A stretch of 64,000 bases of DNA from Candidatus Woesearchaeota archaeon (lineage in GTDB: Archaea > Nanobdellota > Nanobdellia > Woesearchaeales > SKIA01): assembly GCA_046704725.1 (NCBI GenBank), contig JBJKRI010000005.1, forward strand, positions 32,001 to 96,000, given 5' to 3'. The position numbers were made by a program, and so were the translations under genes. This document shows, piece by piece, positions 1-16,094 of this stretch. Under the pieces are notes generated by a model. It was given only the letters and a program-made list of their open reading frames with translations, had not been told where the DNA came from and did not search any database. Within the stretch, counting starts at the first letter, position 1; each line of letters opens with the position of its first letter.

Positions 1-2598
1 GGACCGTTCACAGACTATAATACGACGCACGCGTTCCCCGTGGCGATGCCCTACGGGACGGGCAGCCGCGTCGTGAACGTCTCGTGCATCAATCGCAACG
101 GCAAGGAATCGAACCGGAGCGTGACGATCACCGAGGACTATCCGAGCGCATTGAGCATCGTCGTCACGACCCCGCGCTTCATCGGCACGCCGCAAGTGCC
201 GTTGACCGTGCGAACGAGCATGCTCGCCGACTGCACCGCGACAGGAGCGGGCAAGACGGCGAAACTGTCTACGCTCGATGGCGTGTCGCATACCGGGACG
301 CTTCAGCTCCCCGACGGGACCACGAACGTCACGTACACGTGTACCGAACGAGACAAGAGCGCGCACCAGACAAGCGTGCAGCAGCCCGTGACGGTGGATA
401 CGACCGGACCCTCTGTCGTATTGAAGATGCCGGCGTACACCTGCGGATTCAACCAGTTGCTCGTGGCGGGAACCGTGACGGATAATAGCGGTGTTTCGAG
501 CGTGAACATCTCGTTGTTGGGGAAGACGTACACGACAACGTCACTGCCGTACACCATCAAGAACCTCAATCTCACGGAGAACAAGACCTACACCGTCTCG
601 GTGACCGCGACAGACAAGGCGGGCAATACCGCACCGGCGAGCACCGCGCAGGTCATGGGCAAGAACGCGTCGGACGGCGCGTGCGACACCACGCCACCCG
701 TCGTGCGGTTGAACCAGAAGGCCGGCAACGACGGGGTGCGGGTCTGGCTGAACTGCACGGACAACGTCGCGTGCGCCGACGCCTACGCGATGGGGGTCGG
801 AGCGCCCGACGGCGCATGCACGCTCACTGACGAGAAGTTCTCCGAGAACTATTCCGTGCTGCTCACGAACACGAGCAAGGTCTGTTGGCACGTCGAGGAT
901 GTGAACGGACAGGTCACCGAAGGGCACAAGGTCGTCGATGTGCAGCAGTATCCCGCGACGTGCACCGACGGCATCAAGGACGCGAACGAGACGGGTCTCG
1001 ACTGCGGCGGGCCGTGCGCTCCATGCGATTCAGGCAACCTCACCTGCAAGACCTCCGCTGACTGCGGCGTCGGCGGCATCTGCAGCTCAGGCACGTGCTA
1101 CCAAGCGCAGGTCACGTCATGCACGGCGGATGCGGACTGTGGAGCGGGATCGACGTGCGTGCAAGGGGAGTGCCGAGTGCCCGTGACAGGAAAACCGCCG
1201 GTCTGCACCTTCCCGAGCGACTGCAGCGCCAACGCGACGTGCGGGCAGAACGACACCTGCTACGTGCAGGGAGCGTCGAGCTGCTCGACCAGCAGTGATT
1301 GCGGCGCCGGAGAGTACTGTGTCTTCAGCCAGTGCAGCACCGTGACGCCGCCGATATCCGGCTGCACGAACGACAGCGCGTGCCCGCAAGGAGCGATCTG
1401 CAGCCAAGGCACGTGCTGGGCGCCCCATGTCACGAGCTGCGCCGCGGCCACCGACTGCGCCGCGGGAGGGGCATGTATGCAAGGGGCGTGCTACGCGGCA
1501 TCACAAGCCAGCGATACCTGCGTCACAGGGACGGATTGCGTCTCCGGCGTCTGCGACAGCACGACGAACACCTGCACGCAGAGCGGCTGCAACAACGGCA
1601 TCAAGGACGGGCAGGAGACCGCGGTGGACTGCGGCGGACCGTCGTGCGGCGCGTGCGGCGCGGGCAAGTCCTGCCTGGTGAACAGCGATTGCCAGAGCGC
1701 GAACTGCGTGCAGGGCGTCTGCCAAGCGCCGACCTGCACGGACGGCATCAAGAACCAGGACGAGACGGATATCGACTGCGGCGGAACAGTGTGCCAGCCG
1801 TGCAGCGAGGGATCGGCATGCCTGCAGAACAGCGACTGCGCGACGGACATCTGCAGCGGGACGACCTGCACGAACCAGACGCTCCAAGTGGACAACCCGT
1901 CGCAGCTCGGCAACGGATCGTCGTACAACTACCAGACGTCGCCCACATCAGGGCTCTCGTGGTTCGCCATCGTGCTCATCGTGATCGGCGTGCTGCTCAT
2001 GGGAAGCGGCGGCGGGTACATCTACTACGAACGCAACAGGGTGCACGCCCCGAGACGGACGACGGGACCGCCGGTGACCGGAGGCCGCAGCACAGGCGGG
2101 CAATCGAGCACGCTCACCCCCATCACGCCCAAAGAGGACTACGCGACGAGCAAGCTGCGCGAAGAGGCGCGCAAGCGTCGCCGATCCACGCGCGTCGCCG
2201 GACGCAAGGACCTGCTCAGCGCCTTCGACGAGGAGAAGGCAGAATCACAGGCGAAGACCGTGAAGAAGCCATCGAAGCCCGCGGTGAAGACCGCTCCGGA
2301 GAAGCCCGTCAAGAAAGCGGCGATCAAGGACCACACCGCTCCGGAGAAGCCCGTCGTGAAGCGCAAGGAGACGCCCAAAGAAGTCTTCGAGCGGCTCGAC
2401 AGCCTCGGACGGGACGTGCTGAAGAAGCGGTTCTCCGTGGCGAAGACCCCGGCTGCCATCCGGGACCTGGCGCGATCTCTCATGACGGAGGGCAGGGCGA
2501 AGCCGCACGCCGTGGACGCCGCGCTCGCCGACATGCACGCGAGCGGCCTGATGAGCGAGAAGGATCTCAACAAGCTGCGCGAGGACCTCGAGCTCTGA
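1..2598 (+). CDS. Large cysteine-rich, membrane-anchored surface protein (5' partial): Ig-like domains, Cys-rich repeats, C-terminal TM, basic cytoplasmic tail
   Basis: Frame open from position 1. Ig-like DTTGP/DTTPP boundaries; three CxDGIK(D/N)xxETxxDCGG-type repeats; many C-x5-C-x5-C-x4-C units; TM WFAIVLIVIGVLLMGSGGGYIYY; Lys-rich tail. Confidence 0.75.
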   Translation, partial: GPFTDYNTTHAFPVAMPYGTGSRVVNVSCINRNGKESNRSVTITEDYPSALSIVVTTPRFIGTPQVPLTVRTSMLADCTATGAGKTAKLSTLDGVSHTGTLQLPDGTTNVTYTCTERDKSAHQTSVQQPVTVDTTGPSVVLKMPAYTCGFNQLLVAGTVTDNSGVSSVNISLLGKTYTTTSLPYTIKNLNLTENKTYTVSVTATDKAGNTAPASTAQVMGKNASDGACDTTPPVVRLNQKAGNDGVRVWLNCTDNVACADAYAMGVGAPDGACTLTDEKFSENYSVLLTNTSKVCWHVEDVNGQVTEGHKVVDVQQYPATCTDGIKDANETGLDCGGPCAPCDSGNLTCKTSADCGVGGICSSGTCYQAQVTSCTADADCGAGSTCVQGECRVPVTGKPPVCTFPSDCSANATCGQNDTCYVQGASSCSTSSDCGAGEYCVFSQCSTVTPPISGCTNDSACPQGAICSQGTCWAPHVTSCAAATDCAAGGACMQGACYAASQASDTCVTGTDCVSGVCDSTTNTCTQSGCNNGIKDGQETAVDCGGPSCGACGAGKSCLVNSDCQSANCVQGVCQAPTCTDGIKNQDETDIDCGGTVCQPCSEGSACLQNSDCATDICSGTTCTNQTLQVDNPSQLGNGSSYNYQTSPTSGLSWFAIVLIVIGVLLMGSGGGYIYYERNRVHAPRRTTGPPVTGGRSTGGQSSTLTPITPKEDYATSKLREEARKRRRSTRVAGRKDLLSAFDEEKAESQAKTVKKPSKPAVKTAPEKPVKKAAIKDHTAPEKPVVKRKETPKEVFERLDSLGRDVLKKRFSVAKTPAAIRDLARSLMTEGRAKPHAVDAALADMHASGLMSEKDLNKLREDLEL

Positions 2599-2635
2599 GG
2601 AAACATTTCTTAAGGAAGGCGTGCAGAATAAGCGC

Positions 2636-3220
2636 ATGGGTCGTTCGCGCGCCGGACAATTGCTTGGTCAGATCGTGATCTTCGTAATCGGGTTGGTCGT
2701 GGTCGCTGCGGTACTGGCATACGGCTACATCGTATGGAACGATATCCTCGCGAAGCGTTGCGTGGTCGTCGGTGCGCAGTTCGGTACCGATCTCGCTCAG
2801 GCCATCGATACGAATCGTCAGTGGGGGACCTCGCATCCGGTGACCTTGTCCGCGCCGTGCCAGAGCGTGGATGTGTGCTTCATCGACCTACCCTTCATCG
2901 ACAGCTGGGCTACCGCCGGGACGCAGAGCGGAACTGCATTCCAGCCCTTCAGTTTCATCGGTGCAGGCGCTGTGCAGCCGACCTCTGCGCAGAGGTCCGT
3001 GATGGAGTCGAGTGTGCGGTCTGGAGACCTGACGAACGTCTTCACAATCCAGCAGGACGGCACCGTGCTGCCCGTGCAGAAATTCAACAGCAATCCAGCC
3101 ACGATCGCCGTCCGTAATCAGAACGATTCTGGAAGGGCTGTGTGCTACCCTGCTGTCGGTGGGCAGTTCACCGTGCGTATGGAAGGGAGGGGAGGGCTCG
3201 TCCAGGTCGGGACGCAGTGA
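2636..3220 (+). CDS. Type IV pilin-like protein (class III signal peptide), paralog A
   Basis: MGRSRAG/QLLGQIVIFVIGLVVVAAVL; ATG about 30 nt after a TTTCTTAAG TATA-like box; tandem paralog of next gene. Confidence 0.75.
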   Translation: MGRSRAGQLLGQIVIFVIGLVVVAAVLAYGYIVWNDILAKRCVVVGAQFGTDLAQAIDTNRQWGTSHPVTLSAPCQSVDVCFIDLPFIDSWATAGTQSGTAFQPFSFIGAGAVQPTSAQRSVMESSVRSGDLTNVFTIQQDGTVLPVQKFNSNPATIAVRNQNDSGRAVCYPAVGGQFTVRMEGRGGLVQVGTQ

Positions 3221-3277
3221 GAAGGACGGAGAACAGGAGGAACATTATTTAAAGGGCCTTCGCGGGTCAGAAGACAG

Positions 3278-3862
3278 GTGAGTCGCATGCGCAAGGGGCA
3301 ACTGCTCGGTCATATCGTCGTGTTCGTCATCGGACTGATCGTGGTCGCCGCAGTGCTCTACTTCGGTTATAGCGTCCTGCAGAACATGGGCGTCAAGCGC
3401 TGCGAGGTCGTGCGCGTGCAGTTCGGGACCGATCTCGCGCAGGCCATCGATACGAACCGCGAGTGGGGGACGTCGCATCCGGTGACGCTGTCCGCTCCGT
3501 GCCAGAGCGTCGATATATGCTTCATCGACCGGCCGCTCATCGACGATTGGGCGGCGAACGGCCACAAAGGGGGCTCGGGATTCACGCCGTTCAGCTTCGT
3601 CAGCGAAAAAGCAGTGCAGCCGACGGCGCCGCAGAGGAGCCTGATGGAGACGAGCGTGCAGTCGTTCGACCCGACGAACGTGTTCACCATCCAGCAGGAC
3701 GGCACCGTGCTGCCCGTGGAGAAGTTCAGCGACGTGTCAGCCGCCGTGACCGTGCATAATCCGAGCGATCCAGGGAAGGCGGTCTGCTATGCTGCCGTTG
3801 GAGGGCAGTTCACCGTGCGCATGGAAGGGCAGGGAGGTCTCGTGCAGGTGGGGACACAATGA
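3278..3862 (+). CDS. Type IV pilin-like protein, paralog B
   Basis: RMRKG/QLLGHIVVFVIGLIVV; near-identical to the upstream protein in several blocks. Confidence 0.75.
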   Translation: MSRMRKGQLLGHIVVFVIGLIVVAAVLYFGYSVLQNMGVKRCEVVRVQFGTDLAQAIDTNREWGTSHPVTLSAPCQSVDICFIDRPLIDDWAANGHKGGSGFTPFSFVSEKAVQPTAPQRSLMETSVQSFDPTNVFTIQQDGTVLPVEKFSDVSAAVTVHNPSDPGKAVCYAAVGGQFTVRMEGQGGLVQVGTQ

Positions 3863-4947
3863 GCAGGAAAGGCATCGGCACATTGTTCGTGTGGATATTC
3901 ATCGTCATCGTGGGCGGGCTAATACTGCTCATGTTCTTCCTCGTCGCGCAAGGCCAAGTGCAGGCGGGCAAGTCCAATCTCGATTTCGAGGCGCTCCAGC
4001 AAGTGACGACGATCATCGCGACGCAACAGACGAGCCCCGACACCTATGCGCAAGTGCCTATCCCGAACGACAAGATCACCTTGCAGTGCGAGCTCATACC
4101 GCCGAAGACGATCCTCTCGCAGATCAATATCGGCGGGCAAGGCCAGGACATGACGCATCTGCTGGTCGCAGGGCGCAATATCACCACCGGGCAGCTGGTA
4201 TTGTTCAACAAGGAGTTATGGTTGCCGTTCAGCGTGGGAAACGTCCTGTTCCTGACCGATGACAAGGAGATGCTCGTATTGCAGGACGCGGCGAACGTGC
4301 ACGACGCGAGCCAGGCGCTCATCGCCTTCAACGAAAGCATCCCGTCGGCCGTGGACCGGCGCGTGGATCCGACAGGTTCGGCCATACCGAACGCCGCGGA
4401 CTACCAGAACACGCGCGTCGTCTTGTTCGACCCGCCGCAGGACGTGAAGACGCTCTCGCAGTTCGACGTGCTCGACGGCGCGAAAGCGCAGCTCATGGTC
4501 GTGCGGCCGAGCACCACGGACTGGCGGCAAGCAGGAACCATCACCTTCTACAAGCCCGACCCGACACCCCCTCCGGGCACGCCCGACGCGGTCCTCCCCG
4601 TGAACCCGCCCATCCCGTACGTGGGAGAGACGATGCTGCTCGCGTTCATCTGGCAAGGCGACAGGGACAGCGCCTCATGCCTGCAAGCCAAGATCGCCGA
4701 TCGCATCTCATTGGAATCCACGCTGCAGATGGAGCGCTACGGCATTCTCTACCAGCAGGCCAAGAACGTGCAGGACACGGCGTGCTACGGCGCGTACACG
4801 ACCGGTGCGCTCAAGAACCTACGTGACGTGGGTGGCGACACCTCGAAATGGGCGGGAGCGAACGGCATAGCGGACGCCGTCAATCTTGTTGCTGCGCAGA
4901 ACCAGAACGTCCTGCGCGGCGGAGGGAGCTGTGCGACGATCTACTAA
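3859..4947 (+). CDS. Pilin-like (minor pilin) protein
   Basis: MSRKG/IGTLFVWIFIVIVGGLILLMFF; ATGA overlap with upstream stop. Confidence 0.7.
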   Translation: MSRKGIGTLFVWIFIVIVGGLILLMFFLVAQGQVQAGKSNLDFEALQQVTTIIATQQTSPDTYAQVPIPNDKITLQCELIPPKTILSQINIGGQGQDMTHLLVAGRNITTGQLVLFNKELWLPFSVGNVLFLTDDKEMLVLQDAANVHDASQALIAFNESIPSAVDRRVDPTGSAIPNAADYQNTRVVLFDPPQDVKTLSQFDVLDGAKAQLMVVRPSTTDWRQAGTITFYKPDPTPPPGTPDAVLPVNPPIPYVGETMLLAFIWQGDRDSASCLQAKIADRISLESTLQMERYGILYQQAKNVQDTACYGAYTTGALKNLRDVGGDTSKWAGANGIADAVNLVAAQNQNVLRGGGSCATIY

Positions 4948-5449
4948 GGGGCAGATGCAGGTCCTCGAGACATCGGCGGTCATCCTCGTCTTCGTCGTGC
5001 TCGTGATATTCGCCCTCGCGTGGTTCGCCAAGGCGAACCAGAGCTCATCGAGCTCGCAGCTCGACCAGAGCACAAGACTGGCGTTGCTGGCTACTGCGAA
5101 AGAAGTCATGAACATGCCCGAGCTGCGTTGCAGCATCGCCGGAAAGACGGACAGCACGTGCGTCGATTTGGACCGCGTGAAAGCGTTCCAACGATTGATC
5201 GCCAACGACCCCACGTTCGCCGCGCAGTACCAGGACCGTTTCGCCGGATACAACGTGTACCTACAACTCATCTACCCGCACAGCGAGGCGGTGAGCGGCG
5301 GGGCGACGAGCGTGACCGTCATGTCGTTCGGGCAGAGCACCCAGACCACGCGACGGGTGGCCATACCGGTCATCGCGTACGACCCAGTCACAGGAAAGCA
5401 CATCTTCAGCATGCTCGTGCTCGAGCAGCACACCGGAGGAACCGCATGA
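4931..5449 (+). CDS. Pilin-like protein
   Basis: GTG start after GGAGG; MRRSTKG/QMQVLETSAVILVFVVLVIF. Confidence 0.7.
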   Translation: MRRSTKGQMQVLETSAVILVFVVLVIFALAWFAKANQSSSSSQLDQSTRLALLATAKEVMNMPELRCSIAGKTDSTCVDLDRVKAFQRLIANDPTFAAQYQDRFAGYNVYLQLIYPHSEAVSGGATSVTVMSFGQSTQTTRRVAIPVIAYDPVTGKHIFSMLVLEQHTGGTA

Positions 5450-5964
5450 GCAAGGGGCAGTTCGAGATCATGGGCCTCGCGATCGTGGTGGTCATCATCA
5501 GCGTGGGCATCTTCTTCATGCTCTCCGTCTCGCTGCGTCCCCCCTCGGATCCCGTCTCGCAGGGCATCCACCAACAGTTCGCGCAGAACGTGGTGGACGC
5601 ATTGCTCAAGACAGACCTCGATGGCTGCCCGTACACCGTGCAGGACGCGATCGTCTGGAAAGCGACAGACTCCTACCCGTCCGTGCCGGGGAATCCGCGC
5701 TGCGCGACGCCCGCCGGCCTGGACGACATCATGGGCAACCTCACGCAGGCGATCACCATGTACAGCGGGATGACCTATCATATCGAGATCCGTTATCCCG
5801 CGTGCACCAGCGTGGACAGCAGCCAATGCACCGTCATCTATGAGAAGGACAACGGCTGCAACCCCCTCACGCAGCAGGCGGGACGCCCGGGGATACAGCC
5901 CATACCCACCTGGCCGAAGCCTGGACAGGCCCAGCTCGTGGTCTGGTTGTGCGAACCGCAGTAG
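5446..5964 (+). CDS. Pilin-like protein
   Basis: MSKG/QFEIMGLAIVVVIISVGIFF; ATGA coupling; GGAGG RBS. Confidence 0.72.
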   Translation: MSKGQFEIMGLAIVVVIISVGIFFMLSVSLRPPSDPVSQGIHQQFAQNVVDALLKTDLDGCPYTVQDAIVWKATDSYPSVPGNPRCATPAGLDDIMGNLTQAITMYSGMTYHIEIRYPACTSVDSSQCTVIYEKDNGCNPLTQQAGRPGIQPIPTWPKPGQAQLVVWLCEPQ

Positions 5965-5965
5965 G

Positions 5966-5995
5966 TTTAAATACGCCTTTCGGGAGTGGGAACGC
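5966..5995 (+). promoter_or_regulatory. Archaeal TATA promoter, leaderless transcript
   Basis: TTTAAATACGCCTTTCGGGAG; ATG 30 nt downstream; near-copy at 9851. Confidence 0.65.
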
Positions 5996-6103
5996 ATGGA
6001 CGAGATCGAGACCCGGACGCTCGTGAGCATCGTCTTCGTCATCATCATGATCGTCATCGTCATGGCGGTCCTGTTCGGGAAGCTCAAGGGGTTGCTCGGA
6101 TGA
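5996..6103 (+). CDS. 35-aa pilin-helix-only peptide
   Basis: MDEIETRTLVSIVFVIIMIVIVMAVLFGKLKGLLG; starts 30 nt after TTTAAATA; ATGA overlap with next gene. Confidence 0.6.
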   Translation: MDEIETRTLVSIVFVIIMIVIVMAVLFGKLKGLLG

Positions 6104-6963
6104 GACGCGGCCTCGAGCAGGCGACGGCGGTCGCGCTCGTCTTGTTCCTCGTCTTCGCCATCCTCCTCCTCGGCCTCGGGGCGGAGATCTGGAGCGGGCT
6201 GCGGAACGGGCTGGACATCCAATGCGCCCTCAGCTCGAGCCTGCGAAGCCTCGGCGGCAAGATCTCCATGCAGAACGCTTTCTCGCTGTCGTGCCCGCGA
6301 CGCTTCCTCGACGTCGGCAAGGACACCGTCAAGCTCTCGTACTTCGAGTGGGGGAAGGTCAAGGCCGGAGGGACGTACGCCTACCTCTTCACCGCGAAGG
6401 ACACGAAAGGGGATATCCACCTGCAGTCGAAGACGGCGCTCGACTCCAAGAGCTTCGCTACGGACTTCTCGCGCCTGGCGAGCTACGAGATGCAGCAGTG
6501 CTGGAAGGGATTCGGGAGCGGGAAATACGACGTGACCGGGAGCACGTCGATCTTCTCCGGAAACGCGTGCGTCATCTGCTCGGAGATCTACCTCGACAAG
6601 ACCAGCGGAGCGCCCACGACGACCGTGAACCTCCTAAACGACCTCAACACGATGCACGTGCCGTTCGCGGATTCGGCAGGGACGATGGGCGCGCAGACCT
6701 ACATGCAATACCTCTACGACCCATCGAACCCGTCCGACCCGACCACATGCCTGTCCAAGGACGATATCGACAAGCAGATGGGCGCGATACCGATCGCCTC
6801 CGGAAAGGACTACGCCGTCGTCTTGTACCGCAACGGAGGAAAACTGCAGAGCGCGGTAGGCGCGCCCGGCAAGCTCGTCGGTGCCGGCAATCCCTATTGC
6901 CAGGCGGTGGCGACCATCCCGATAGAACAAGTCTTCCAGGACTGCGACGCGGTCCTCAACTGA
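6100..6963 (+). CDS. Pilin-like protein with Cys pairs
   Basis: MRRG/LEQATAVALVLFLVFAILLL; CWKGFG and CVIC motifs. Confidence 0.7.
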   Translation: MRRGLEQATAVALVLFLVFAILLLGLGAEIWSGLRNGLDIQCALSSSLRSLGGKISMQNAFSLSCPRRFLDVGKDTVKLSYFEWGKVKAGGTYAYLFTAKDTKGDIHLQSKTALDSKSFATDFSRLASYEMQQCWKGFGSGKYDVTGSTSIFSGNACVICSEIYLDKTSGAPTTTVNLLNDLNTMHVPFADSAGTMGAQTYMQYLYDPSNPSDPTTCLSKDDIDKQMGAIPIASGKDYAVVLYRNGGKLQSAVGAPGKLVGAGNPYCQAVATIPIEQVFQDCDAVLN

Positions 6964-6967
6964 TACC

Positions 6968-7771
6968 ATGGCAGAACATCTCAACGCATTGGTCGTCGTC
7001 GTGCTCGCGGCGATACTTCTCCTGCTGCTGCTCGGCGTGTCGGGCATCATCGGCGGCATCGCGAAGTCGAGCGGCGACACGTCGTGCCCGACGAGCGTGG
7101 CCGAACGCGTGCAGGCGCTCTTCGTCACGGACAACGCCGAGCCGCTGCTCACCGGCTGCGACACGCGTACCGCGACGTTCACCAAGGACACGTCGGACGC
7201 GGCGATCGCGAGCCGTATCGCGACGGACTACAGCTGGTGCGCGAACAGCTTCAAGCCGGCGTGGACGCATCCGATCACGCGCAAGTCGAGCGTGTACTGC
7301 CACGTCTGCGCCTACTACACCTATTCCGGGTCGCCGCGTGCGGTGCCAGGAGTGCTGACAGCGCTCCTGGACAACGGTATCGCATCCGACGGAATCAATA
7401 TCACCGGTGTATCATCGCCAGATATCCTGAAGAAGCAGCCGATGCTGCTCGAGAAGAACCTGAGCATCGTCTTCTACCAAGAACGGCAGGACTCGTCGGT
7501 CCTCGGCCAATACTACAAGAAATGGCAGGGCGGCGCTGCCGGAGGGCTCCTCGGCTACGGAGGCGTGGAGCTCGTGGCAGTCGTCCTCCCCGCAATAGGG
7601 TCCTTGCCGGTCACCGCCACCGTGGCGGCGGTCGGCGCGGCGGGCGGCTACCTGTTCGGCGGCTACCTGTTCGACGGGAACACCGTTCACAGCGACATCA
7701 TTATAAGGCCTCTCGACAGTGACATGGTCAATGGCCTCGGCTGCACCACGACGGATGTCCGGCAACCGTAG
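6968..7771 (+). CDS. Pilin-like protein with internal Gly-rich hydrophobic segment
   Basis: N-terminal hydrophobic helix; CANSF/CHVC motifs parallel those of the 6100 gene; GGAAGGLLGYGG...AAVGAAGGYLFGG segment. Confidence 0.65.
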   Translation: MAEHLNALVVVVLAAILLLLLLGVSGIIGGIAKSSGDTSCPTSVAERVQALFVTDNAEPLLTGCDTRTATFTKDTSDAAIASRIATDYSWCANSFKPAWTHPITRKSSVYCHVCAYYTYSGSPRAVPGVLTALLDNGIASDGINITGVSSPDILKKQPMLLEKNLSIVFYQERQDSSVLGQYYKKWQGGAAGGLLGYGGVELVAVVLPAIGSLPVTATVAAVGAAGGYLFGGYLFDGNTVHSDIIIRPLDSDMVNGLGCTTTDVRQP

Positions 7772-7934
7772 GGGGATGGAGACGAGCACGCTCGTGCGGC
7801 TCATCATCCTCACCGTGTTCCTGCTCCTCGTGCTCGGGGCGATGATCGTCATCTGGAAGAACGCGCACGGCGCGTTCTCCGGGTCCAATAGCCTGTGCGC
7901 GAAGACGGGCGGGCTATTCGGGGGCTGCACATGA
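7755..7934 (+). CDS. Small pilin-like protein
   Basis: MSGNRRG/METSTLVRLIILTVFLLLVL; C-terminal Cys pair. Confidence 0.65.
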   Translation: MSGNRRGMETSTLVRLIILTVFLLLVLGAMIVIWKNAHGAFSGSNSLCAKTGGLFGGCT

Positions 7935-8092
7935 GGCGCGGCTCGATCGCTTTCGAGAAGCTCGTGAAATGGGTTCTCGGTGGATTGCTCGCAGTGGTCA
8001 TCCTGTATTTCCTGATCAACCAGTTCAGCCCCAACAAGCAGGGAGTCGTGCATCAGCTCATCGCGCTCCTGGGCCAGGCCAAGAGCCCCTAG
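7931..8092 (+). CDS. Small pilin-like protein
   Basis: MRRG/SIAFEKLVKWVLGGLLAVVILYF (Glu at +5); ATGA coupling. Confidence 0.65.
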   Translation: MRRGSIAFEKLVKWVLGGLLAVVILYFLINQFSPNKQGVVHQLIALLGQAKSP

Positions 8093-8129
8093 CGAAGCGT
8101 TTAAATAGTCTCCTCTCCGGGAGCACTCC

Positions 8130-8408
8130 ATGGAACGCCGCGCCCAGGGCATCTCGCTCAATGTCATCATCATCGCCGCGATATCGCTCGTGGTGCTCGT
8201 TATCCTCGTCGCCCTCGTCTTCAATTGGGGCGGGAACTTCAAGAACGGAACGACCAGTTGCGAAGCGCTCGGTACCAAGGGCGTGGATTATCAGTGCGTC
8301 AGCCCGAATATCGGTGAGCAGTGCCCGACCGGCTGGAAACCATTCGCTGGGCGCACGTGTGCCCAATCGACACCGGACAATCCAAAGACGTGCTGCATCC
8401 CGGTATGA
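8130..8408 (+). CDS. Small pilin with six-Cys head domain
   Basis: MERRA/QGISLNVIIIAAISLVVLVIL; six Cys ending in CC; 30 nt after TTTAAATA. Confidence 0.75.
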   Translation: MERRAQGISLNVIIIAAISLVVLVILVALVFNWGGNFKNGTTSCEALGTKGVDYQCVSPNIGEQCPTGWKPFAGRTCAQSTPDNPKTCCIPV

Positions 8409-8662
8409 GACGCGCGCAAGGACTCAGTCTGAATGTTGTCATCATCGCGGCGATAGCGCTGCTCGTCCTCGTGATACTCGCTGTCATCCTGTCGCGGAGC
8501 GGAGCGATATTCAGCAAACAGACCACCAACGGCTGTGTGGCGAACGGTGGAGAATGCGCAGCGCCGACGAGCCAGATCGCCACCGACCCCGCGAACTACG
8601 TCGCGCATCCAGAATTCACCTGCCCGACCGGACAGACCTGCTACGTGTACCAATATGGATAA
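8405..8662 (+). CDS. Small pilin with four-Cys head domain
   Basis: MRRA/QGLSLNVVIIAAIALLVLVIL; CVANGGEC...CPTGQTC. Confidence 0.75.
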   Translation: MRRAQGLSLNVVIIAAIALLVLVILAVILSRSGAIFSKQTTNGCVANGGECAAPTSQIATDPANYVAHPEFTCPTGQTCYVYQYG

Positions 8663-8897
8663 GGGACAGAACCTGTCGGTGAGCACGCTCGTTCTTGTCG
8701 CACTCGGCGTGCTTATCCTCGTCCTCGCCGCGCTGGCCATCAACAAGTACTGGGGCGGGTTCTCGAGCACCGCACAGGACTGCCATAACCAAGGCGGTAC
8801 CTGCACGCCGTCAGCGCAGTGCGCCAACAGCCAGGTGGATCAGCTCGCCACATGCCCGACGAAGGGAGACGTCTGTTGCGTCGGCACAAGCCCTTAA
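8655..8897 (+). CDS. Small pilin with beta-defensin-like six-Cys head
   Basis: MDKG/QNLSVSTLVLVALGVLILVL; C-x6-C-x5-C-x10-C-x6-CC. Confidence 0.72.
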   Translation: MDKGQNLSVSTLVLVALGVLILVLAALAINKYWGGFSSTAQDCHNQGGTCTPSAQCANSQVDQLATCPTKGDVCCVGTSP

Positions 8898-8922
8898 ATA
8901 GCAGGAATCCGGAGAGCGCAGC

Positions 8923-9141
8923 ATGAACTGGATCGTGGCGGCGGTCATCGCCCTCCTTCTCATCATCATCGGATTCGCGGTCATCCATCAGATACAGAAG
9001 GGGGCGAACGCGTTGCCGAACGCGGCCAGCGGCGTGCAGTGCCGGGTCACGGGCGGGACGTGCGCGACGAGCTGCACGGGCAGCGCGACGGTCGTCGCTG
9101 CGGACTGCGCTGGAGGGACGCAATGCTGCGTGGCCGGTTGA
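8923..9141 (+). CDS. Small membrane-anchored/pilin-like protein with beta-defensin-like six-Cys head
   Basis: MNWIVAAVIALLLIIIGF; C-x6-C-x3-C-x10-C-x5-CC; 30 nt after CTTAAATA. Confidence 0.7.
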   Translation: MNWIVAAVIALLLIIIGFAVIHQIQKGANALPNAASGVQCRVTGGTCATSCTGSATVVAADCAGGTQCCVAG

Positions 9142-9842
9142 ATGGACGTAAGGGACAGGACATCATGGGAGGGCGCATCATCCTCACGCTCCTGCTCACG
9201 ATAGCCACCATCGGTCTCGGGGTCGTCGTCATCGGCATACCGCTCTATCATTCGGTCTTCGGCACGGACACCATCGGCGTGCAACAGCTCGCGCAGCGCG
9301 CGGACTTCCTCGTCCACGGCGGGACGGCGGCGGCATTCGACGCGACCAAACAGGGGACGACGTACGCACGCACAGAATACCTGTTCAGCCCGAACAAGGA
9401 CGTGCTCTTGGTGGGCTTCGGGACGGGACAGAAGACCGTCGACGGCACGAGCAACGCCTTGTACGATCCGTCGCTGGTGCCGTACGGGATCATCCAACGT
9501 CCCGATTCGTGCGGCAAGCAGGCGTGCGTATGCCAGCTCACCTACAAGACGCATTCGCGGACGACCACGCGGAGCGGCTCGGGAGCGGGCAGCACCATCG
9601 AGGTGACAGGAACCTCGTGCTATCCTATCAAGGCGGATACGTTGGGCATCCTGCGGCTCGACAGCACGACGGCCGCGACCGCGGACCAGCACCTCGAGCA
9701 CATGATCATCCCCGTGTCGAAGGGGGACACGCAGTTGCTGGACATCGAGTACGACCCGAAACGCACGCCGCCGACGCTGCTCATCACGCCGCTTCCCGCC
9801 AAGGGAGGGAACTTCTGCTGGGCCTGCCCCAAGCAGCCCTGA
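9138..9842 (+). CDS. Pilin-like protein
   Basis: TTG start overlapping upstream stop; MNGRKG/QDIMGGRIILTLLLTIATIGLG; CGKQACVC motif. Confidence 0.65.
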   Translation: MNGRKGQDIMGGRIILTLLLTIATIGLGVVVIGIPLYHSVFGTDTIGVQQLAQRADFLVHGGTAAAFDATKQGTTYARTEYLFSPNKDVLLVGFGTGQKTVDGTSNALYDPSLVPYGIIQRPDSCGKQACVCQLTYKTHSRTTTRSGSGAGSTIEVTGTSCYPIKADTLGILRLDSTTAATADQHLEHMIIPVSKGDTQLLDIEYDPKRTPPTLLITPLPAKGGNFCWACPKQP

Positions 9843-9850
9843 AGGCCACA

Positions 9851-9879
9851 TTTAAATACGCATTTCGGGAGAGCGCGGC
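9851..9879 (+). promoter_or_regulatory. Archaeal TATA promoter, leaderless transcript
   Basis: TTTAAATACGCATTTCGGGAG; ATG 29 nt downstream. Confidence 0.65.
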
Positions 9880-10701
9880 ATGCGAAGAGGGGAGGTCTCC
9901 TGGCTCACCAACGTCCTCATGCAGGTCGTTCTCGCCACAGCGATCGTCGCGCTCTTCTGGTTCCCCTACCAGCAGGACGCCTTCAACGGGAAGCTCTACC
10001 AGGAGAAAGCCTACACGACGGACAACGCATTGCTCTTGAGCACGCTCCACGCCATCCCATCGGGGACGATGCGCGTGACCTACCTGCTCGACGACCCGTC
10101 ATACACGATCTGGCTCAGTCAAGGGACTGTGTTATTCACGCGCGGCGCCAGTGGGAGCAGCCCCACCAAAGGGATATTCGCGAAGGACCAGGACGTGCGC
10201 ATCTCCCCGTACACGTTCAGCCCGCAATACTTCCAGTATATCAAGACGCCGTCCGATCTCTCCGTACAGGTCGTCGCCCAGGCGGACCAGTGCGCGATGC
10301 CCGCGCAACCCGTGGACTGGAACGGCAAGACCGTCGCGTGGACGGGAGACGCCGAAGCCGCGCGCATCCTCGGCGACGGACTGTTCCGCGTGAGCCCGCA
10401 AGTCGTGAAGGCAAGCTCCAGCACTGCACCGGTGACGACGCTCGACTACACGATTGGGAAGCAATCGGGCTACATCATCGTGCACGGCACCGGCATGGCA
10501 TCCTCGGCTATCGCCTGCCTCGCCGACCAGGAATTCACCGACAGGGGATTGACGCCCGTGACGGTGCGCACGGACCCGACCGTGCAAGGGGTCACGCTCA
10601 GCGTCCCGAAGAGCCATGACACGAACACAGTACACGACGCCATGAGCTGCGCGTACAACCGATTCGTCGCGCCGGAGGTGGTCAAGCGTGGATGTCAGTA
10701 G
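9880..10701 (+). CDS. Pilin-like protein with C-terminal alpha/beta domain
   Basis: MRRG/EVSWLTNVLMQVVLATAIVALF; 29 nt after TTTAAATA. Confidence 0.7.
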   Translation: MRRGEVSWLTNVLMQVVLATAIVALFWFPYQQDAFNGKLYQEKAYTTDNALLLSTLHAIPSGTMRVTYLLDDPSYTIWLSQGTVLFTRGASGSSPTKGIFAKDQDVRISPYTFSPQYFQYIKTPSDLSVQVVAQADQCAMPAQPVDWNGKTVAWTGDAEAARILGDGLFRVSPQVVKASSSTAPVTTLDYTIGKQSGYIIVHGTGMASSAIACLADQEFTDRGLTPVTVRTDPTVQGVTLSVPKSHDTNTVHDAMSCAYNRFVAPEVVKRGCQ

Positions 10702-11140
10702 CTCGATACAATGGATCATCTACATCATGCTCGCGATCGCCGCCACCGTCGTGATCGTGCTCGCCGTCGGCTGGCTGATACCGAACATGGACAGTCCAGC
10801 CATGCGCGCGCAGATCGTCGCCGCGCGCGTCACCTACGGGGGCGGCTACATGCCGGAACCAGGGGTCGTGAACCTCGCCGACTTCAACCAGGCCGTGGCG
10901 GACCGGCACCTGCAGTACTCCGACAGCACGCTCTCGCCGTCCATCGGGGTGCGCGTGACCGTCACGGGAGCGAAGGATCCGATATACTACGACAAGAAGG
11001 CGTATGGCGTCGACAAGACATTCCTCTCCGAGCACGTCAACGGCATCGTGAACGACACCTGGGAACTGCCGGTCGTCGTGGACGACGGGAGGACGCAGAA
11101 GAAAGGAACCCTCCTGGTGGAGGTGCTCTATGCGTCGTAA
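10688..11140 (+). CDS. Pilin-like protein
   Basis: N-terminal helix IQWIIYIMLAIAATVVIVLAVGW; overlaps both neighbours. Confidence 0.65.
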   Translation: MDVSSSIQWIIYIMLAIAATVVIVLAVGWLIPNMDSPAMRAQIVAARVTYGGGYMPEPGVVNLADFNQAVADRHLQYSDSTLSPSIGVRVTVTGAKDPIYYDKKAYGVDKTFLSEHVNGIVNDTWELPVVVDDGRTQKKGTLLVEVLYAS

Positions 11141-11690
11141 GGGGCAGGTCGAGAGCCTGGGGACGATTTTCTGGGGGGCGCTCCTGCTCATCATCTGCCT
11201 GCTGTTCAGCATACTCTTCTGGGTGGTGAACGGGCATCTGCACGACGCGGCCTTCACCAAGGACCAGCGCGTGGACTGGGAGGCGGGATACCTCACGAGC
11301 AGCCTCGCGCGTTCTCTAGTGACTGTGGACGGCAAGACGGAGAGCTTCGCCACATACCTCGACACGCACCAGGGAACGCTGGACCAGAACCTCGTGCAAT
11401 CGCATCTGGACGCCTTCCGGGCATCCGTGCACATCCCTGAGAGGAAGGTGCTCCTCTTCGTGTCGGTCAAGAAGACCTACATCTCCTCCGTGGACGAAGG
11501 TTTCGACTCGTCGACAGAGAGCATCATCGCGTCGCTTGGGACCACGCAAGGAGAGAACACCCTCGCAGCGAACATGTACAACACCCCTGCGCAGTACGGC
11601 GACCTGTCCTTCGTGGAGCTGCCCGGAGGGATGGGGATCGGCGCGATAACCTCAGGCACGGACAAGCCAGTCACCGGAGGGCCCGCATGA
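11130..11690 (+). CDS. Pilin-like protein
   Basis: MRRKG/QVESLGTIFWGALLLIICLLF; GGAGGTG RBS. Confidence 0.7.
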   Translation: MRRKGQVESLGTIFWGALLLIICLLFSILFWVVNGHLHDAAFTKDQRVDWEAGYLTSSLARSLVTVDGKTESFATYLDTHQGTLDQNLVQSHLDAFRASVHIPERKVLLFVSVKKTYISSVDEGFDSSTESIIASLGTTQGENTLAANMYNTPAQYGDLSFVELPGGMGIGAITSGTDKPVTGGPA

Positions 11691-13978
11691 GACGCGGACA
11701 GATCTCCTATTTCCCCGTCGTCCTGACGATCGGCGTGACGATCATCTTCGCGCTCGTCCTGGGGCGCTTGCTCGTGGCGGGGCAATTCGACGGCCACCCC
11801 CCAGCCATCGGCGAGAAGCAGGAAGCGGTGCTGCGCGCCTATAGTCGAGCGGATGATATCCGGTTGTACGCTCAGCAGGCCGCGCGGGAGGCCGTGGCTG
11901 AGGCGGAGAAGAGCGGTGACTTCGCAACGCCCATCGCCCAGCGGGCGGCGACGCGTTTCACCGCCCTCATGCGGCAATATCCGTTCGCGAGCATCACTCA
12001 GATGTTCAACGCCAAGCAGGAAGGCGACAGGATCGTCTTCACCTCCGACCAGGATTTGTCAGTTCCCGTCGGCACCGCAGGTGCGGCGACCACCTCTGCG
12101 CCGTCCGGTGCGGGCGTCCTCACGGTCTGGCCGACCGACCATCACGTCATCACGAGCCTTTTCGGCTGGCGCAAGGCGCCGCAGGGAGGGAGCACGTACC
12201 ACCCGGCAATCGACATCCGCGGAGCGGTGGGAGACCCGGTGTACGCCGTGGCCGATGGGACGGCCATCGCAGAGAAGGCGAAGCACCTGCTCCAGCTCAC
12301 CTTGCCCGACGGCTGGACGTGCTGGTACCTCCACATCGACCCGACGGCGAACGGACCTGTCACCGCGGGGGAGAAGGTCGCGACCGTCGGGAACATCCCC
12401 GGCGTGGAGCACCACGTGGACCTGCGCTGCTTCAACGACGCCCTGCTCGGCCCCACACTCGCTGAGAATCTCTGGCCGAAAGACTACGTGAAGGACGGAG
12501 CTGCGACCGGCGACCTGCAATACGCCATCATCTACGACAAGCACGCCTTCGTGGACCCGTACTGCCTGTTTACGCCAGCGCTCCAGCAAGAGGCACTGCA
12601 GAGCGACCTGAAGGACCCGACGCTCGTGGCCGATACGACCGGCTTCACCAAACGGCCGGGCGGGGATGTCGCGACCAAGCTGCAGGACACCTGTCAAGCG
12701 TACGCGGCGCAGCACCTGCTGGCCGCCGCGCAGACGACGAGCGCTTCGACGTCGAGCCCTCCCGTGTCGAACACCGTGCTGCAGAAGACGCTCTCCAACC
12801 TCAAAGACCAACAGGAGCAGGGAAAGAGTCTGTACCAGTGGGTGCAGGATACCGCGAAGAGCGCAGGGGTCGACCCGAACCTTGTCATCGCGGTCATCGC
12901 GCAAGAGAGCCAGGGGGTGATCGACGCGCAAAGTAGGACCGGCGTGCAAGGAGTCATGCAGGTCACCTGTACCACCTTCCAGGACACGTTGCACGTATCG
13001 ACCTGCGACAAGCGCGCCGATCCCGTGCTCAGCATACAGGCGGGGACGTACTATCTCGCGGGCCTGTGGAAGAAGTACGACGGCTACACGCAGCAAGCGG
13101 CATTCACGGCCGCGAACTACAACGGCGGCGGGATGGTGCTGGTCGCCGTCAAGCGCGCAGGAAGCGACCCGTCCTATGACGCCGCGATGGCGCGGTTCAC
13201 CCCGCAGCTCCTCAGCGCAGCCCCCGGATACGCCGGCTGGACCCCGCAGCAGCTCGCCGCGAAAGTGAAGGAGACGACGGACTACGGGAGAAAGGTGTCC
13301 GGGTACTACGGCATGCTCGGCGGAGCGGTGGCTCCCGGCGGAACGAGCCGCACCGATATCGGGACGTACACCTTCGCGCTCATGGTGAGCGCCCCGATTG
13401 ACAAGAGCTACACCGACGTGCTCGACCTGCGAAGCACGCTCTCGAGCTGCGGGACCACCGGTTGCGTGACCCAAGCGTTGCAGCGCAGCGGCGCGACAGC
13501 GTGCTCCGACTACGCGTCAGAACTGCAACGCACCATCACCGAATGTCAGCAGGACCAGGACCAGCACGTCTGTGGCTGCCCGATACCCCTGCCGCCGCTG
13601 GGCGTCGACGCGAAAGTCACACCCGAATCGATACTCATCGGAAAGACCACGACGCCAGTGCAATGGATCGTGCCGCCGGGGGACGCCGTCATCCACGTGA
13701 CCTTCTCCTTGCCGGATACAAACGACCCGCTGCACCCGATCACAGGGGACACGCTCACGCTCTCGGGAACGACGGTCAGGCTCACGGACAGCGCAAACAC
13801 CATCCTGGGCGGCGCTTCCGGGACGCTCGGCACACAGGGCATTATCTACGCGACGAGGCAGCCCGACGGACAGACGCTGCGACTGACGAACACGACGGTC
13901 GGAGCGTGCTTCGCCGGCTATGCGAAAGCCTATTGCCTGGACGGTACGCGCTTCTGGGTGACACAGCAGGTGCCGTGA
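11687..13978 (+). CDS. Pilin-signal protein with M23 metallopeptidase and soluble lytic transglycosylase (SLT) domains
   Basis: MRRG/QISYFPVVLTIG; M23: ITSLFGWR...HPAID...PVYAVADG...YLH...HHVD; SLT: AVIAQES, GVMQV, GTYYL, ANYNGG, ETTDYGRKV. Confidence 0.85.
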   Translation: MRRGQISYFPVVLTIGVTIIFALVLGRLLVAGQFDGHPPAIGEKQEAVLRAYSRADDIRLYAQQAAREAVAEAEKSGDFATPIAQRAATRFTALMRQYPFASITQMFNAKQEGDRIVFTSDQDLSVPVGTAGAATTSAPSGAGVLTVWPTDHHVITSLFGWRKAPQGGSTYHPAIDIRGAVGDPVYAVADGTAIAEKAKHLLQLTLPDGWTCWYLHIDPTANGPVTAGEKVATVGNIPGVEHHVDLRCFNDALLGPTLAENLWPKDYVKDGAATGDLQYAIIYDKHAFVDPYCLFTPALQQEALQSDLKDPTLVADTTGFTKRPGGDVATKLQDTCQAYAAQHLLAAAQTTSASTSSPPVSNTVLQKTLSNLKDQQEQGKSLYQWVQDTAKSAGVDPNLVIAVIAQESQGVIDAQSRTGVQGVMQVTCTTFQDTLHVSTCDKRADPVLSIQAGTYYLAGLWKKYDGYTQQAAFTAANYNGGGMVLVAVKRAGSDPSYDAAMARFTPQLLSAAPGYAGWTPQQLAAKVKETTDYGRKVSGYYGMLGGAVAPGGTSRTDIGTYTFALMVSAPIDKSYTDVLDLRSTLSSCGTTGCVTQALQRSGATACSDYASELQRTITECQQDQDQHVCGCPIPLPPLGVDAKVTPESILIGKTTTPVQWIVPPGDAVIHVTFSLPDTNDPLHPITGDTLTLSGTTVRLTDSANTILGGASGTLGTQGIIYATRQPDGQTLRLTNTTVGACFAGYAKAYCLDGTRFWVTQQVP

Positions 13979-15854: not shown

Positions 15855-16094
15855 GTGGCAGAGCACGTATTCCTCGCGGTCATCCTCATCGCTATCGTCG
15901 CGGTCGTGGCGCTCGCGATCGCCGACACCTCGAACAGCGCGGGACAGGCCTACCAGGGGAACGTCGCCACGCAGCACTGCACGCCCACGCGCATGTGCGC
16001 GGGAAGCAAGCTCGAGATCATCAAGAGCGACTGCTCGGTGGAGGAGGCCTACTGCCAGAGCGGCTGCGACTCGGCGCGCGGCGTCTGCATGTGA
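15855..16094 (+). CDS. Small Cys-rich membrane/secreted protein
   Basis: N-terminal TM followed by several Cys (YCQSGCDSARGVC). Confidence 0.6.
   Translation: MAEHVFLAVILIAIVAVVALAIADTSNSAGQAYQGNVATQHCTPTRMCAGSKLEIIKSDCSVEEAYCQSGCDSARGVCM

Follow-up and report, generated by a model that had tools for sequence, protein, structure and literature searches.

Short archaeal type IV pilins such as the Epd pilins of Methanococcus maripaludis and PilA1-6 of Haloferax volcanii are very small proteins with a class III signal-like N-terminus, and they occur as paralogs with a conserved hydrophobic domain and divergent outer parts, encoded away from the assembly machinery. The modular pilin PilB of Streptococcus sanguinis, in the part of its description considered here, is a minor pilin whose helix displays a large grafted adhesin module (PMC8179133). 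Here, an array of four small genes is described at positions 8,130 to 9,141 of a 64,000-nucleotide stretch of DNA (the window; G000:C5:32001-96000) from the genome of a Candidatus Woesearchaeota archaeon (1.18 Mb, 8 contigs, 60% guanine plus cytosine (GC)). According to the translations of their open reading frames (ORFs), each of the genes, named 8130, 8405, 8655, and 8923 after their first positions, encodes an N-terminal hydrophobic helix joined to a small Cys-rich head. We read these proteins, with moderate confidence, as subunits of a type-IV-pilus-like surface filament that carries a minimal, disulfide-stabilized, beta-defensin-like and possibly adhesive head.

The heads resemble the vertebrate beta-defensins and trans-defensins (PF00711 and PF13841; big defensins, crotamine, and the platypus defensin-like peptides) in the spacing of six cysteines, in a G-x-C motif, and in a terminal CC, and resemble beta-defensins further in a predicted three-stranded sheet and a C1-C5, C2-C4, C3-C6 pairing deduced from cysteine losses. 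They differ from beta-defensins in that they are archaeal and are carried on a pilin-like helix instead of following a Sec signal and propiece, and in being acidic, not cationic, with the window copies falling below Pfam cut-offs; common descent cannot be judged on so small a domain. In comparison with the Epd and PilA1-6 pilins, the N-terminus, the size, the pattern of paralogs, and the distance from the machinery are alike, whereas the heads here would be a disulfide knot in place of a beta-sandwich or bare helix, and the motif is Q-G-x-S-x-N instead of Q-x-S-x-E. In contrast to PilB, the module has ~40 residues and is seemingly the whole head of every paralog.

The Four Genes and the Spacing of Their Cysteines

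Mini-pilin 1 (8130..8408, + strand; 92 residues) begins with M-E-R-R-A-Q-G-I-S-L-N followed by a hydrophobic helix. Its head (core 8259-8396, +), which matches the head hidden Markov model (HMM) at E 2e-6, has six cysteines at residues 44, 56, 65, 77, 88, and 89, with long loops (x11, x8, x11, x10) and the CC end continuing as CC-I-P-V. Mini-pilin 2 (8405..8662, +; 85 residues) has a four-Cys head (core 8534-8641) with cysteines at 44, 51, 73, and 79 only: C-x2-N-GG-E-C is kept, C3 and C6 are absent, and a late C-x5-C is followed by a tyrosine at the C6 position. Mini-pilin 3 (8655..8897, +; 80 residues) starts with M-D-K-G-Q-N-L-S and the helix, and carries a canonical six-Cys head (core 8781-8879; C43-x6-C50-x5-C56-x10-C67-x6-C74C75) with GG-T ahead of C2. 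In mini-protein 4 (8923..9141, +; 72 residues) the helix runs from residue 2 without a K-G-Q motif, and the six-Cys head is compact (core 9040-9129; C40-x6-C47-x3-C51-x10-C62-x5-C68C69). The outer part of each of the four proteins is a single head of 30-46 residues and nothing else. Genes 8130 and 8405 overlap by 4 bases (an ATGA start/stop) and 8405 and 8655 by 8 bases, and two further paralogs lie on contigs C3 and C7 of the same genome. The four ORFs and the cysteine spacings quoted in the original prediction, which was made from the window's sequence, are borne out by these translations.

The beta-defensin spacing (C-x4-8-C-x3-6-C-x9-13-C-x4-7-CC, with G-x-C at C2) is fitted exactly by 8655 and 8923, while 8130 deviates by its longer loops and 8405 by having four cysteines. 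When a regular expression of this type was run on a six-frame translation of the genome, 11 open frames were found versus 5.45 on average after residue shuffling; three of the 11 are genes of this array. The cysteine spacing on its own is near chance within this genome, and its significance lies in conservation. This near-chance result is one of the points in favor of a view that we find very doubtful, namely that the likeness to beta-defensins is an artefact, the heads having some other small disulfide fold and the structure prediction being driven by the spacing of the cysteines.

Conservation and Paired Loss of Cysteines

A profile of the six paralogs found the family in all 41 related genomes, mostly in tandem arrays, and 62 loci were taken from 40 of these genomes. 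The working set comprised 193 small ORFs with an N-terminal hydrophobic stretch, 132 of which match the profile (130 unique). The head alignment (A2) has 117 rows, that is, the 130 minus 14 (seven other small membrane proteins or rows without the framework, and seven rows with 8 or 14 cysteines), plus the 8923 head, which was added by hand. At least one six-Cys head occurs in 37 of the 40 genomes. Across the 130 rows, 101 heads have six cysteines, 18 have four (two of these rows being non-members), 6 have eight, 1 has 14, 3 have two, and 1 has none. An odd count occurs in none of the 130, nor in any of the 50 members of a replicate sample from 22 further genomes, which has 47 six-Cys heads (all ending in CC), 2 four-Cys heads, and 1 eight-Cys head. 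The six-Cys heads of the first set end in CC in 100 of 101 cases and have G-x-C at C2 in 79 of 101, and the modal loops of the family are x6, x3/5/6, x10-12, and x5-6. Three other genomes of the genus (loci L004, L005, and L016) have the same order of four genes, again with a four-Cys gene in second place; orthologs of 8130 are the first gene of the array in all three, and the ortholog of 8923 is L016 299-520. Because it is found in all 41 genomes, with these frequencies of CC and G-x-C and with a recurrent gene order, the pattern goes beyond chance.

The four-Cys heads are informative with regard to disulfide pairing. A2 holds 16 of them, 6 without C3 and C6 and 10 without C2 and C4. The first six, which keep C1, C2, C4, and C5, are 8405, its three orthologs in the genus, L033:1014, and L047:930; MAFFT set the last cysteine of two of the 8405 orthologs under C6, and it is read as C5 because the subsequent Y-R-F motif matches 8405. 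The other ten keep C1, one middle cysteine, and the CC. In seven of these, a residue other than cysteine follows G-G-x, which means that C2 is gone, and the middle cysteine lies 3-10 residues past the C2 position, which fits C3. The assignment of L057:594 is by spacing alone, and L022:1079 and L024:922 are ambiguous. With one further head of each type in the replicate sample, the 18 four-Cys heads have lost C3 and C6 in 7 cases and C2 and C4 in 11 (two of them ambiguous), and no other combination is seen. The loss of C3 and C6 that had been proposed for 8405 is therefore real and common to six further homologs, and the proposed check by covariation across homologs returns losses that are always paired.

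If lost pairs are taken as bonded pairs, these losses imply the connectivity C1-C5, C2-C4, C3-C6 in the heads, which is the pairing of beta-defensins. Knottins are paired C1-C4, C2-C5, C3-C6 and alpha-defensins C1-C6, C2-C4, C3-C5, and both pairings would be excluded by losses that give C2-C4 and C3-C6. This result is reached without any structural model, and it counts against the beta-defensin likeness being an artefact of prediction.

The independence of the losses was examined on a weak tree from 80 non-Cys columns, which has a minimum of 14 state changes, 5 for C3 and C6 and 9 for C2 and C4. As judged from this tree, the loss of C2 and C4 arose more than once, because the approximately unbiased (AU) test rejects a single clade for that group (log-likelihood difference 136.5, p 0.0034). 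The same test does not reject a single clade for the C3 and C6 group (log-likelihood difference 2.18, p 0.49), so that one old event may account for this loss. The profile built from the C3 and C6 group scores >100 bits in its own five genomes only, among 301 genomes (six of them unpublished). Thus, the original prediction of a correlated loss of C3 and C6 holds insofar as the loss is paired and no odd cysteine count occurs, but it may reflect one ancestral event. Such a single origin, together with the two ambiguous assignments, lessens the weight of the paired losses for the defensin-type reading.

Predicted Fold of the Heads

AlphaFold2 (AF2) predicts three-stranded beta-sheets for the heads of 8655 (8760-8894, built with A2; predicted local distance difference test score (pLDDT) 80.4; strands 13-16, 25-28, and 38-42) and 8405 (8513-8656; pLDDT 86.8; strands 13-16, 29-32, and 42-46), and 8405 is thereby predicted to keep the fold despite the loss of the C3-C6 bridge. 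Foldseek was searched against 350,542 chains of the PDB, and VIA-align, run without Foldseek, against 48,161 representatives. With the 8655 head, Foldseek ranks 1-23 are all defensins or defensin-like peptides, and the alignment with a human beta-defensin-1 mutant (2nlb) gives a template modeling score (TM) of 0.58/0.70 and a root-mean-square deviation (rmsd) of 1.7 over 33 columns. With the 8405 head, a tick carboxypeptidase inhibitor is at the top (TM 0.59, rmsd 1.8 over 43 columns) and defensins make up most of the first nine ranks, unrelated chains dominating lower down. VIA-align found 32 chains at Z >= 2 for the 8655 head (top 3.9): 24 are defensins by title, two are unrelated, and six (crotamine, helianthamide, the tick inhibitor, and three cnidarian peptides) we take to be of the beta-defensin fold. 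For the 8405 head there are 25 such chains (top 3.9), of which 17 are defensins by title, six presumably beta-defensin-fold peptides, and two unrelated. Nearly all structural matches thus come from beta-defensins and trans-defensins; the best PDB matches of the two models reach TM 0.62 and Z 3.9.

Sequence profiles point in the same direction. The A2 profile, searched against 177,635 PDB sequences, has 18 matches at E <= 10, four of them at E < 1e-3; 17 are beta-defensin-fold peptides, 14 of the 18 being beta-defensins or trans-defensins. The best are the tick carboxypeptidase inhibitor (8.4e-5), gallinacin-11 (8.3e-4), crotamine (0.028), and beta-defensin 3 (0.052), and all six cysteines are aligned. 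The tick inhibitor (PF10468) has two beta-defensin-like domains, and its six cysteines and its K-G-G-x-C and G-x-x-CC-V motifs align with the heads; it differs as a soluble two-domain animal protease inhibitor, which acts through its C-terminal tail, and there is no sign of inhibition by the heads. When the 117 members were scanned individually, Defensin_beta was the Pfam family with the most members matched (17 at E <= 1, best 1e-4), followed by Inhibitor_I68 (8) and Defensin_beta_2 (7). A profile made from sequence alone picks out beta-defensin-fold peptides from among the many Cys-rich families of the PDB, which is a second point against an artefact.

Several observations are nonetheless unfavorable to a beta-defensin fold and have to be set on the other side. 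Foldseek returned no PDB match at E <= 0.001 for the head models, and fold scores are weak throughout (Foldseek E >= 0.7, Z <= 3.9), although a low Z is expected because the heads have only ~45 residues. Defensin structures were part of AF2 training, and AF2 may reproduce a memorized beta-defensin fold from the cysteine spacing; both the weak scores and the training set are what an artefact would entail. The window copies score under the Pfam cut-offs (8923 reaches 14.4 bits with Defensin_beta, PF00711, versus 21; the 8655 head has E 0.33 with PF00711). The fold itself is a prediction and the disulfide pairing is read from cysteine losses. The proposed AlphaFold and Foldseek comparison therefore came out as expected for the identity of the top matches, which have the beta-defensin fold, but not for their scores, whereas the claim of a beta-defensin-like framework is upheld by spacing, profile matches, predicted fold, and paired losses in combination.

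N-Terminus and Pilus Machinery

The N-terminus is better conserved than the head across the 117 members, with the consensus M-[KR]-K-[GA]-Q-G-[LIM]-S-[LM]-N-[TV]-I-I-I-A-A-I-A-L..., then I-F-T-G-R-x-G-x-F. Class III features, i.e., a charged N-terminus, a [KR]-[GA] site, and a hydrophobic stretch of ~20 residues, are apparent by eye in 8130, 8405, and 8655, and the pilin-like N-termini noted earlier do resemble class III (prepilin) signals. The genome encodes one prepilin peptidase (Peptidase_A24 at C7:28264), and it has T2SSE ATPase matches at five places and six T2SSF matches, which occur as pairs at three loci. A pilin role is likely from these sequence features.

In the arrangement we propose, the class-III-type signal and ~25 hydrophobic residues would insert the protein into the membrane, where the single prepilin peptidase would probably cleave the signal. 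The conserved helix would polymerize as the core of a type-IV-pilus-like filament, assembled by one of the three ATPase/platform sets encoded elsewhere in the genome. Every subunit would then expose its 30-46-residue head, predicted to be three-stranded and presumably closed by the disulfides C1-C5, C2-C4, and C3-C6; 8405 is a conserved variant with two disulfides, in which the C3-C6 bridge is missing and the fold is predicted to persist.

Several observations argue against filament subunits. Gene 8923 lacks a charged leader and cleavage motif, and both it and its ortholog begin directly with the hydrophobic segment. No ATPase, platform, or prepilin peptidase gene is near the array in the source genome, and in 5 near-complete relatives the 30 kb on either side of the array are free of ATPase genes. 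The pilin models of Pfam and NCBIfam are silent at these four genes (E <= 1), PF04021 having a single weak match in the genome (C3:161860; 16.9 bits, under the cut-off). Moreover, type 4 filaments are infrequent among DPANN according to the part of a 2026 survey considered here (PMC13705601). The start of 8923, the absence of assembly genes nearby, and the silence of the pilin HMMs would suit uncleaved, signal-anchored surface proteins, e.g., envelope or cell-cell contact components, equally well. We regard such anchors as distinctly unlikely, since K-[GA]-Q-G-x-S-x-N is kept ahead of the helix across the 117 members and a plain anchor needs no such motif, and since a genome of 1.18 Mb retains a prepilin peptidase and three machinery sets.

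With regard to disulfide formation, the genome has no match to VKOR (PF07884). A 121-residue four-helix membrane protein without a Pfam match (G000 C7:30177-30542, - strand), which has C-x3-C and a repeated P-x-C-[LI]-Y-G, sits between the prepilin peptidase at C7:28264 and the ATPase/platform pair at C7:34654-37072; as a candidate disulfide-forming factor it is speculative.

Charge and Possible Functions of the Heads

The original prediction described the heads as not strongly cationic, and they are in fact acidic: the net charge of the Cys core has a median of -2 (range -8 to +2) and is positive in 10 of 117 members, the four window cores having 0, -3, -1, and 0. In this the heads are unlike defensins. 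Membrane attack or killing in the style of defensins is unlikely for them because they are acidic, and they would most likely form a compact, oxidation-stabilized structural or adhesive surface instead of membrane-breaking peptides.

An alternative is that the proteins are released or membrane-tethered effector peptides, which act on bacteria through lipid II, peptidoglycan, or membranes and use the N-terminus for export or anchoring only. The genes are small, diversified tandem paralogs arranged like defensin or bacteriocin clusters, and a pilin-like SLT-M23 peptidoglycan hydrolase is encoded at the end of the operon (see below). Attack on or attachment to bacterial walls by Woesearchaeota has also been proposed: in the parts of two papers considered here, their transglycosylases are suggested to act on bacterial walls (PMC8204110; PMC9723730), and the same parts mention no pili or pilin, nor, for PMC8204110, cysteine. 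Apart from its acidic heads, the family fits effectors poorly in that the hydrophobic N-terminus is its best-conserved part, as is expected of a polymerization domain. In addition, only 1 of 5 near-complete relatives has SLT no more than 5 kb from the array, and 2 of 5 have the family without any SLT match, which also detracts from a filament working together with a hydrolase. All in all, an effector role appears fairly unlikely.

Head-like modules are also found fused to lysins in metagenomic proteins. P0085, a match from a protein library, consists of nine head-like repeats between a signal segment and a GH25 muramidase domain, and the family profile matches it at E 9e-21 in nine stretches. 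The look-alike repeats have the form C-x6-C-x5-C-x8-11-C-x7-CC with a Q-G-G-Q-C motif, and occur in 2 to ~21 tandem copies. The repeat region of P0085 has 32 relatives at E <= 1e-3, and 11 of the 32 have peptidoglycan-acting domains: GH25, Phage_lysozyme2 (four), Glucosaminidase (two), NlpC/P60, Muramidase, Polysacc_deac_1, and Phage_lysozyme; one relative has a hevein domain. The head HMM recognizes the repeats in 15 of 34 sequences, the hydrolase fusions among them being P0085, P0160, and P0170 only, whose repeats precede GH25, Phage_lysozyme2, and NlpC/P60 domains; the remaining look-alike repeat sequences match by regular expression only. That recognized repeats precede wall-hydrolase domains in these three proteins would be in keeping with effectors.

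These fusions differ from the family in having tandem repeats behind a Sec-type signal, and their setting is different as well. Their loci (L104-L108; 2-3 kb) lie on contigs of 27-36% GC with a leucine-rich-repeat neighbor. No match to P0085 was found in 201 genomes of the order, although an empty answer from such a search shows little. A phage collection matches the GH25 part of P0085 only, IMG/VR has no relative of P0160, and the ESM Atlas returned only eukaryotic GH25 clusters for P0085 (at 0.85, a lead only). The fusions may be eukaryotic in origin, and the lack of a match in the 201 order genomes and the nature of their contigs stand against using them in support of effectors. What follows from them is that modules of this type occur alongside wall-degrading enzymes, not that the pilin heads bind walls. 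By analogy, the six-Cys look-alikes fused to peptidoglycan hydrolases, along with the pilin-like SLT-M23 protein in the operon, suggest that binding of the heads to a bacterial cell-wall component is possible. A wider proposal would make the trans-defensin architecture a widespread prokaryotic surface module instead of an invention of animals alone. All subunits of a Woesearchaeales pilus would carry such a head, the heads would bind peptidoglycan or a lipid-II-like glycan of the bacterial wall, and the pilus, together with pilin-anchored murein hydrolases, would enable the ultrasmall archaea to seize bacterial hosts; to this we give very little credence.

Distribution of the Family

The four genes are best read as members of a large, unnamed, and unannotated family of Woesearchaeales mini-pilins. 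An archaeal source, as originally proposed, is supported by the relatives of an RPA-like protein of the window, which are Woesearchaeota/Nanoarchaeota metagenome-assembled genomes (30 loci, best 58% identical). With the full-length profile, 292 of the 301 genomes in a phylum sample give a match (the unpublished G261 and G262 being included in the tally). Against 1.84 billion library representatives of proteins, it has 6148 matches at E <= 1e-3 and 3249 at E <= 1e-10; among the best 150 of the 6148, 138 have six-Cys heads and the others are tandem or extended forms, four-Cys forms scoring lower. A word-indexed homolog search with the 8655 head matched only itself, and one with the head alignment against "longer" proteins had no match, a null that is weak evidence. 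In the ESM Atlas, unnamed Nanobdellota proteins form the clusters nearest the head (at 0.75, a lead only).

In five genomes of other orders of the class, the same N-terminus is followed by a different head of ~115 residues or by none, and a class-wide beta-defensin-like head was accordingly rejected; since the N-terminus bears other heads or none there, the defensin-like head seems particular to this order (Woesearchaeales). The ~115-residue heads (L094-L098; G230, G132, G091, G061, and G076) start with C-x3-C and have 6-7 cysteines, and versions of 59-72 residues without any head stand beside their genes. Within the family, eight-Cys variants have an additional pair in the C3-C4 loop, and L027 542-922 (G010), P0122, and P0139 have two tandem heads behind one pilin-like helix, with 12-14 cysteines.

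Putative Promoters and Neighboring Genes

A TATA-box-like TTTAAATA (8100..8107, +) lies 30 bases 5' of the 8130 ATG and is likely the archaeal promoter of genes 1-3, judging from its position. A second TATA-like box, CTTAAATA (8893..8900, +), lies 30 bases 5' of the 8923 ATG and would be the promoter ahead of that gene. Boxes like TTTAAATA (<=1 mismatch) occur 18 times in the window versus 3.06 expected. Several are ~30 bases ahead of start codons (8100, 8893, and 9851), which suggests leaderless or short-leader transcripts in the window. Rfam and tRNA scans of the window gave no matches.

The array is part of a run of 17 successive + strand genes (2621-13978), each with an N-terminal hydrophobic segment, in several cases after R-[KR]-G-[QE]. 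No Pfam or NCBIfam family is found in this run except in its terminal SLT-M23 gene, and the run looks like a surface-structure island. Directly upstream of the array are three small or medium membrane proteins (6968-7771, 7776-7934 with 52 residues and two cysteines, and 7931-8092 with 53 residues; all +), which have no Pfam or NCBIfam match and recur 5' of arrays in L004, L005, L014, L016, and others. The four downstream genes (9165-9842, 9880-10701, 10688-11140, and 11130-11690; +) also encode an N-terminal hydrophobic segment and match no family; two of them have R-R-G-E or R-K-G-Q motifs. The terminal gene (11687..13978, +) encodes a 763-residue protein with SLT (1.3e-17) and Peptidase_M23 (3.1e-7) domains behind a pilin-like M-R-R-G-Q-I-S and helix, and is a peptidoglycan hydrolase of an archaeon, possibly located on or beside the filament. 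As a fixed part of the island the SLT-M23 gene was rejected; it lies <=5 kb from the array in G000 and G034 only.

Very large secreted proteins are encoded 5' of the island (C5:16594-34598). The large surface protein at window positions 40-2598 (+), whose frame is open from C5:29847, has Ig-like (Big) domains and a Cys-rich module like DUF7107 or Dickkopf_N. A 79-residue ORF at 15855-16094 (+) has an N-terminal hydrophobic helix and six cysteines in another pattern, without a terminal CC.

Significance for the Woesearchaeota

Full-text literature searches found no archaeal trans-defensin and no description of this family, although the supplements of PMC13705601 and PMC8204110, which were outside their coverage, may list it; the part of PMC13705601 considered here mentions neither defensin nor disulfide. 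According to the part of PMC11561630 considered here, trans-defensins are placed in vertebrates and some invertebrates, and bacteria have cis-defensins only. Should the fold be confirmed, a trans-defensin-type domain would for the first time be known from an organism other than an animal. The head would also be smaller than any other globular pilin head known to us. Chemical synthesis is within reach for heads of this length, and the paired losses amount to a natural test of which disulfides are dispensable to a defensin-type fold. For the Woesearchaeota, a very abundant uncultivated lineage, the family would give a candidate for the major subunit of a surface filament.

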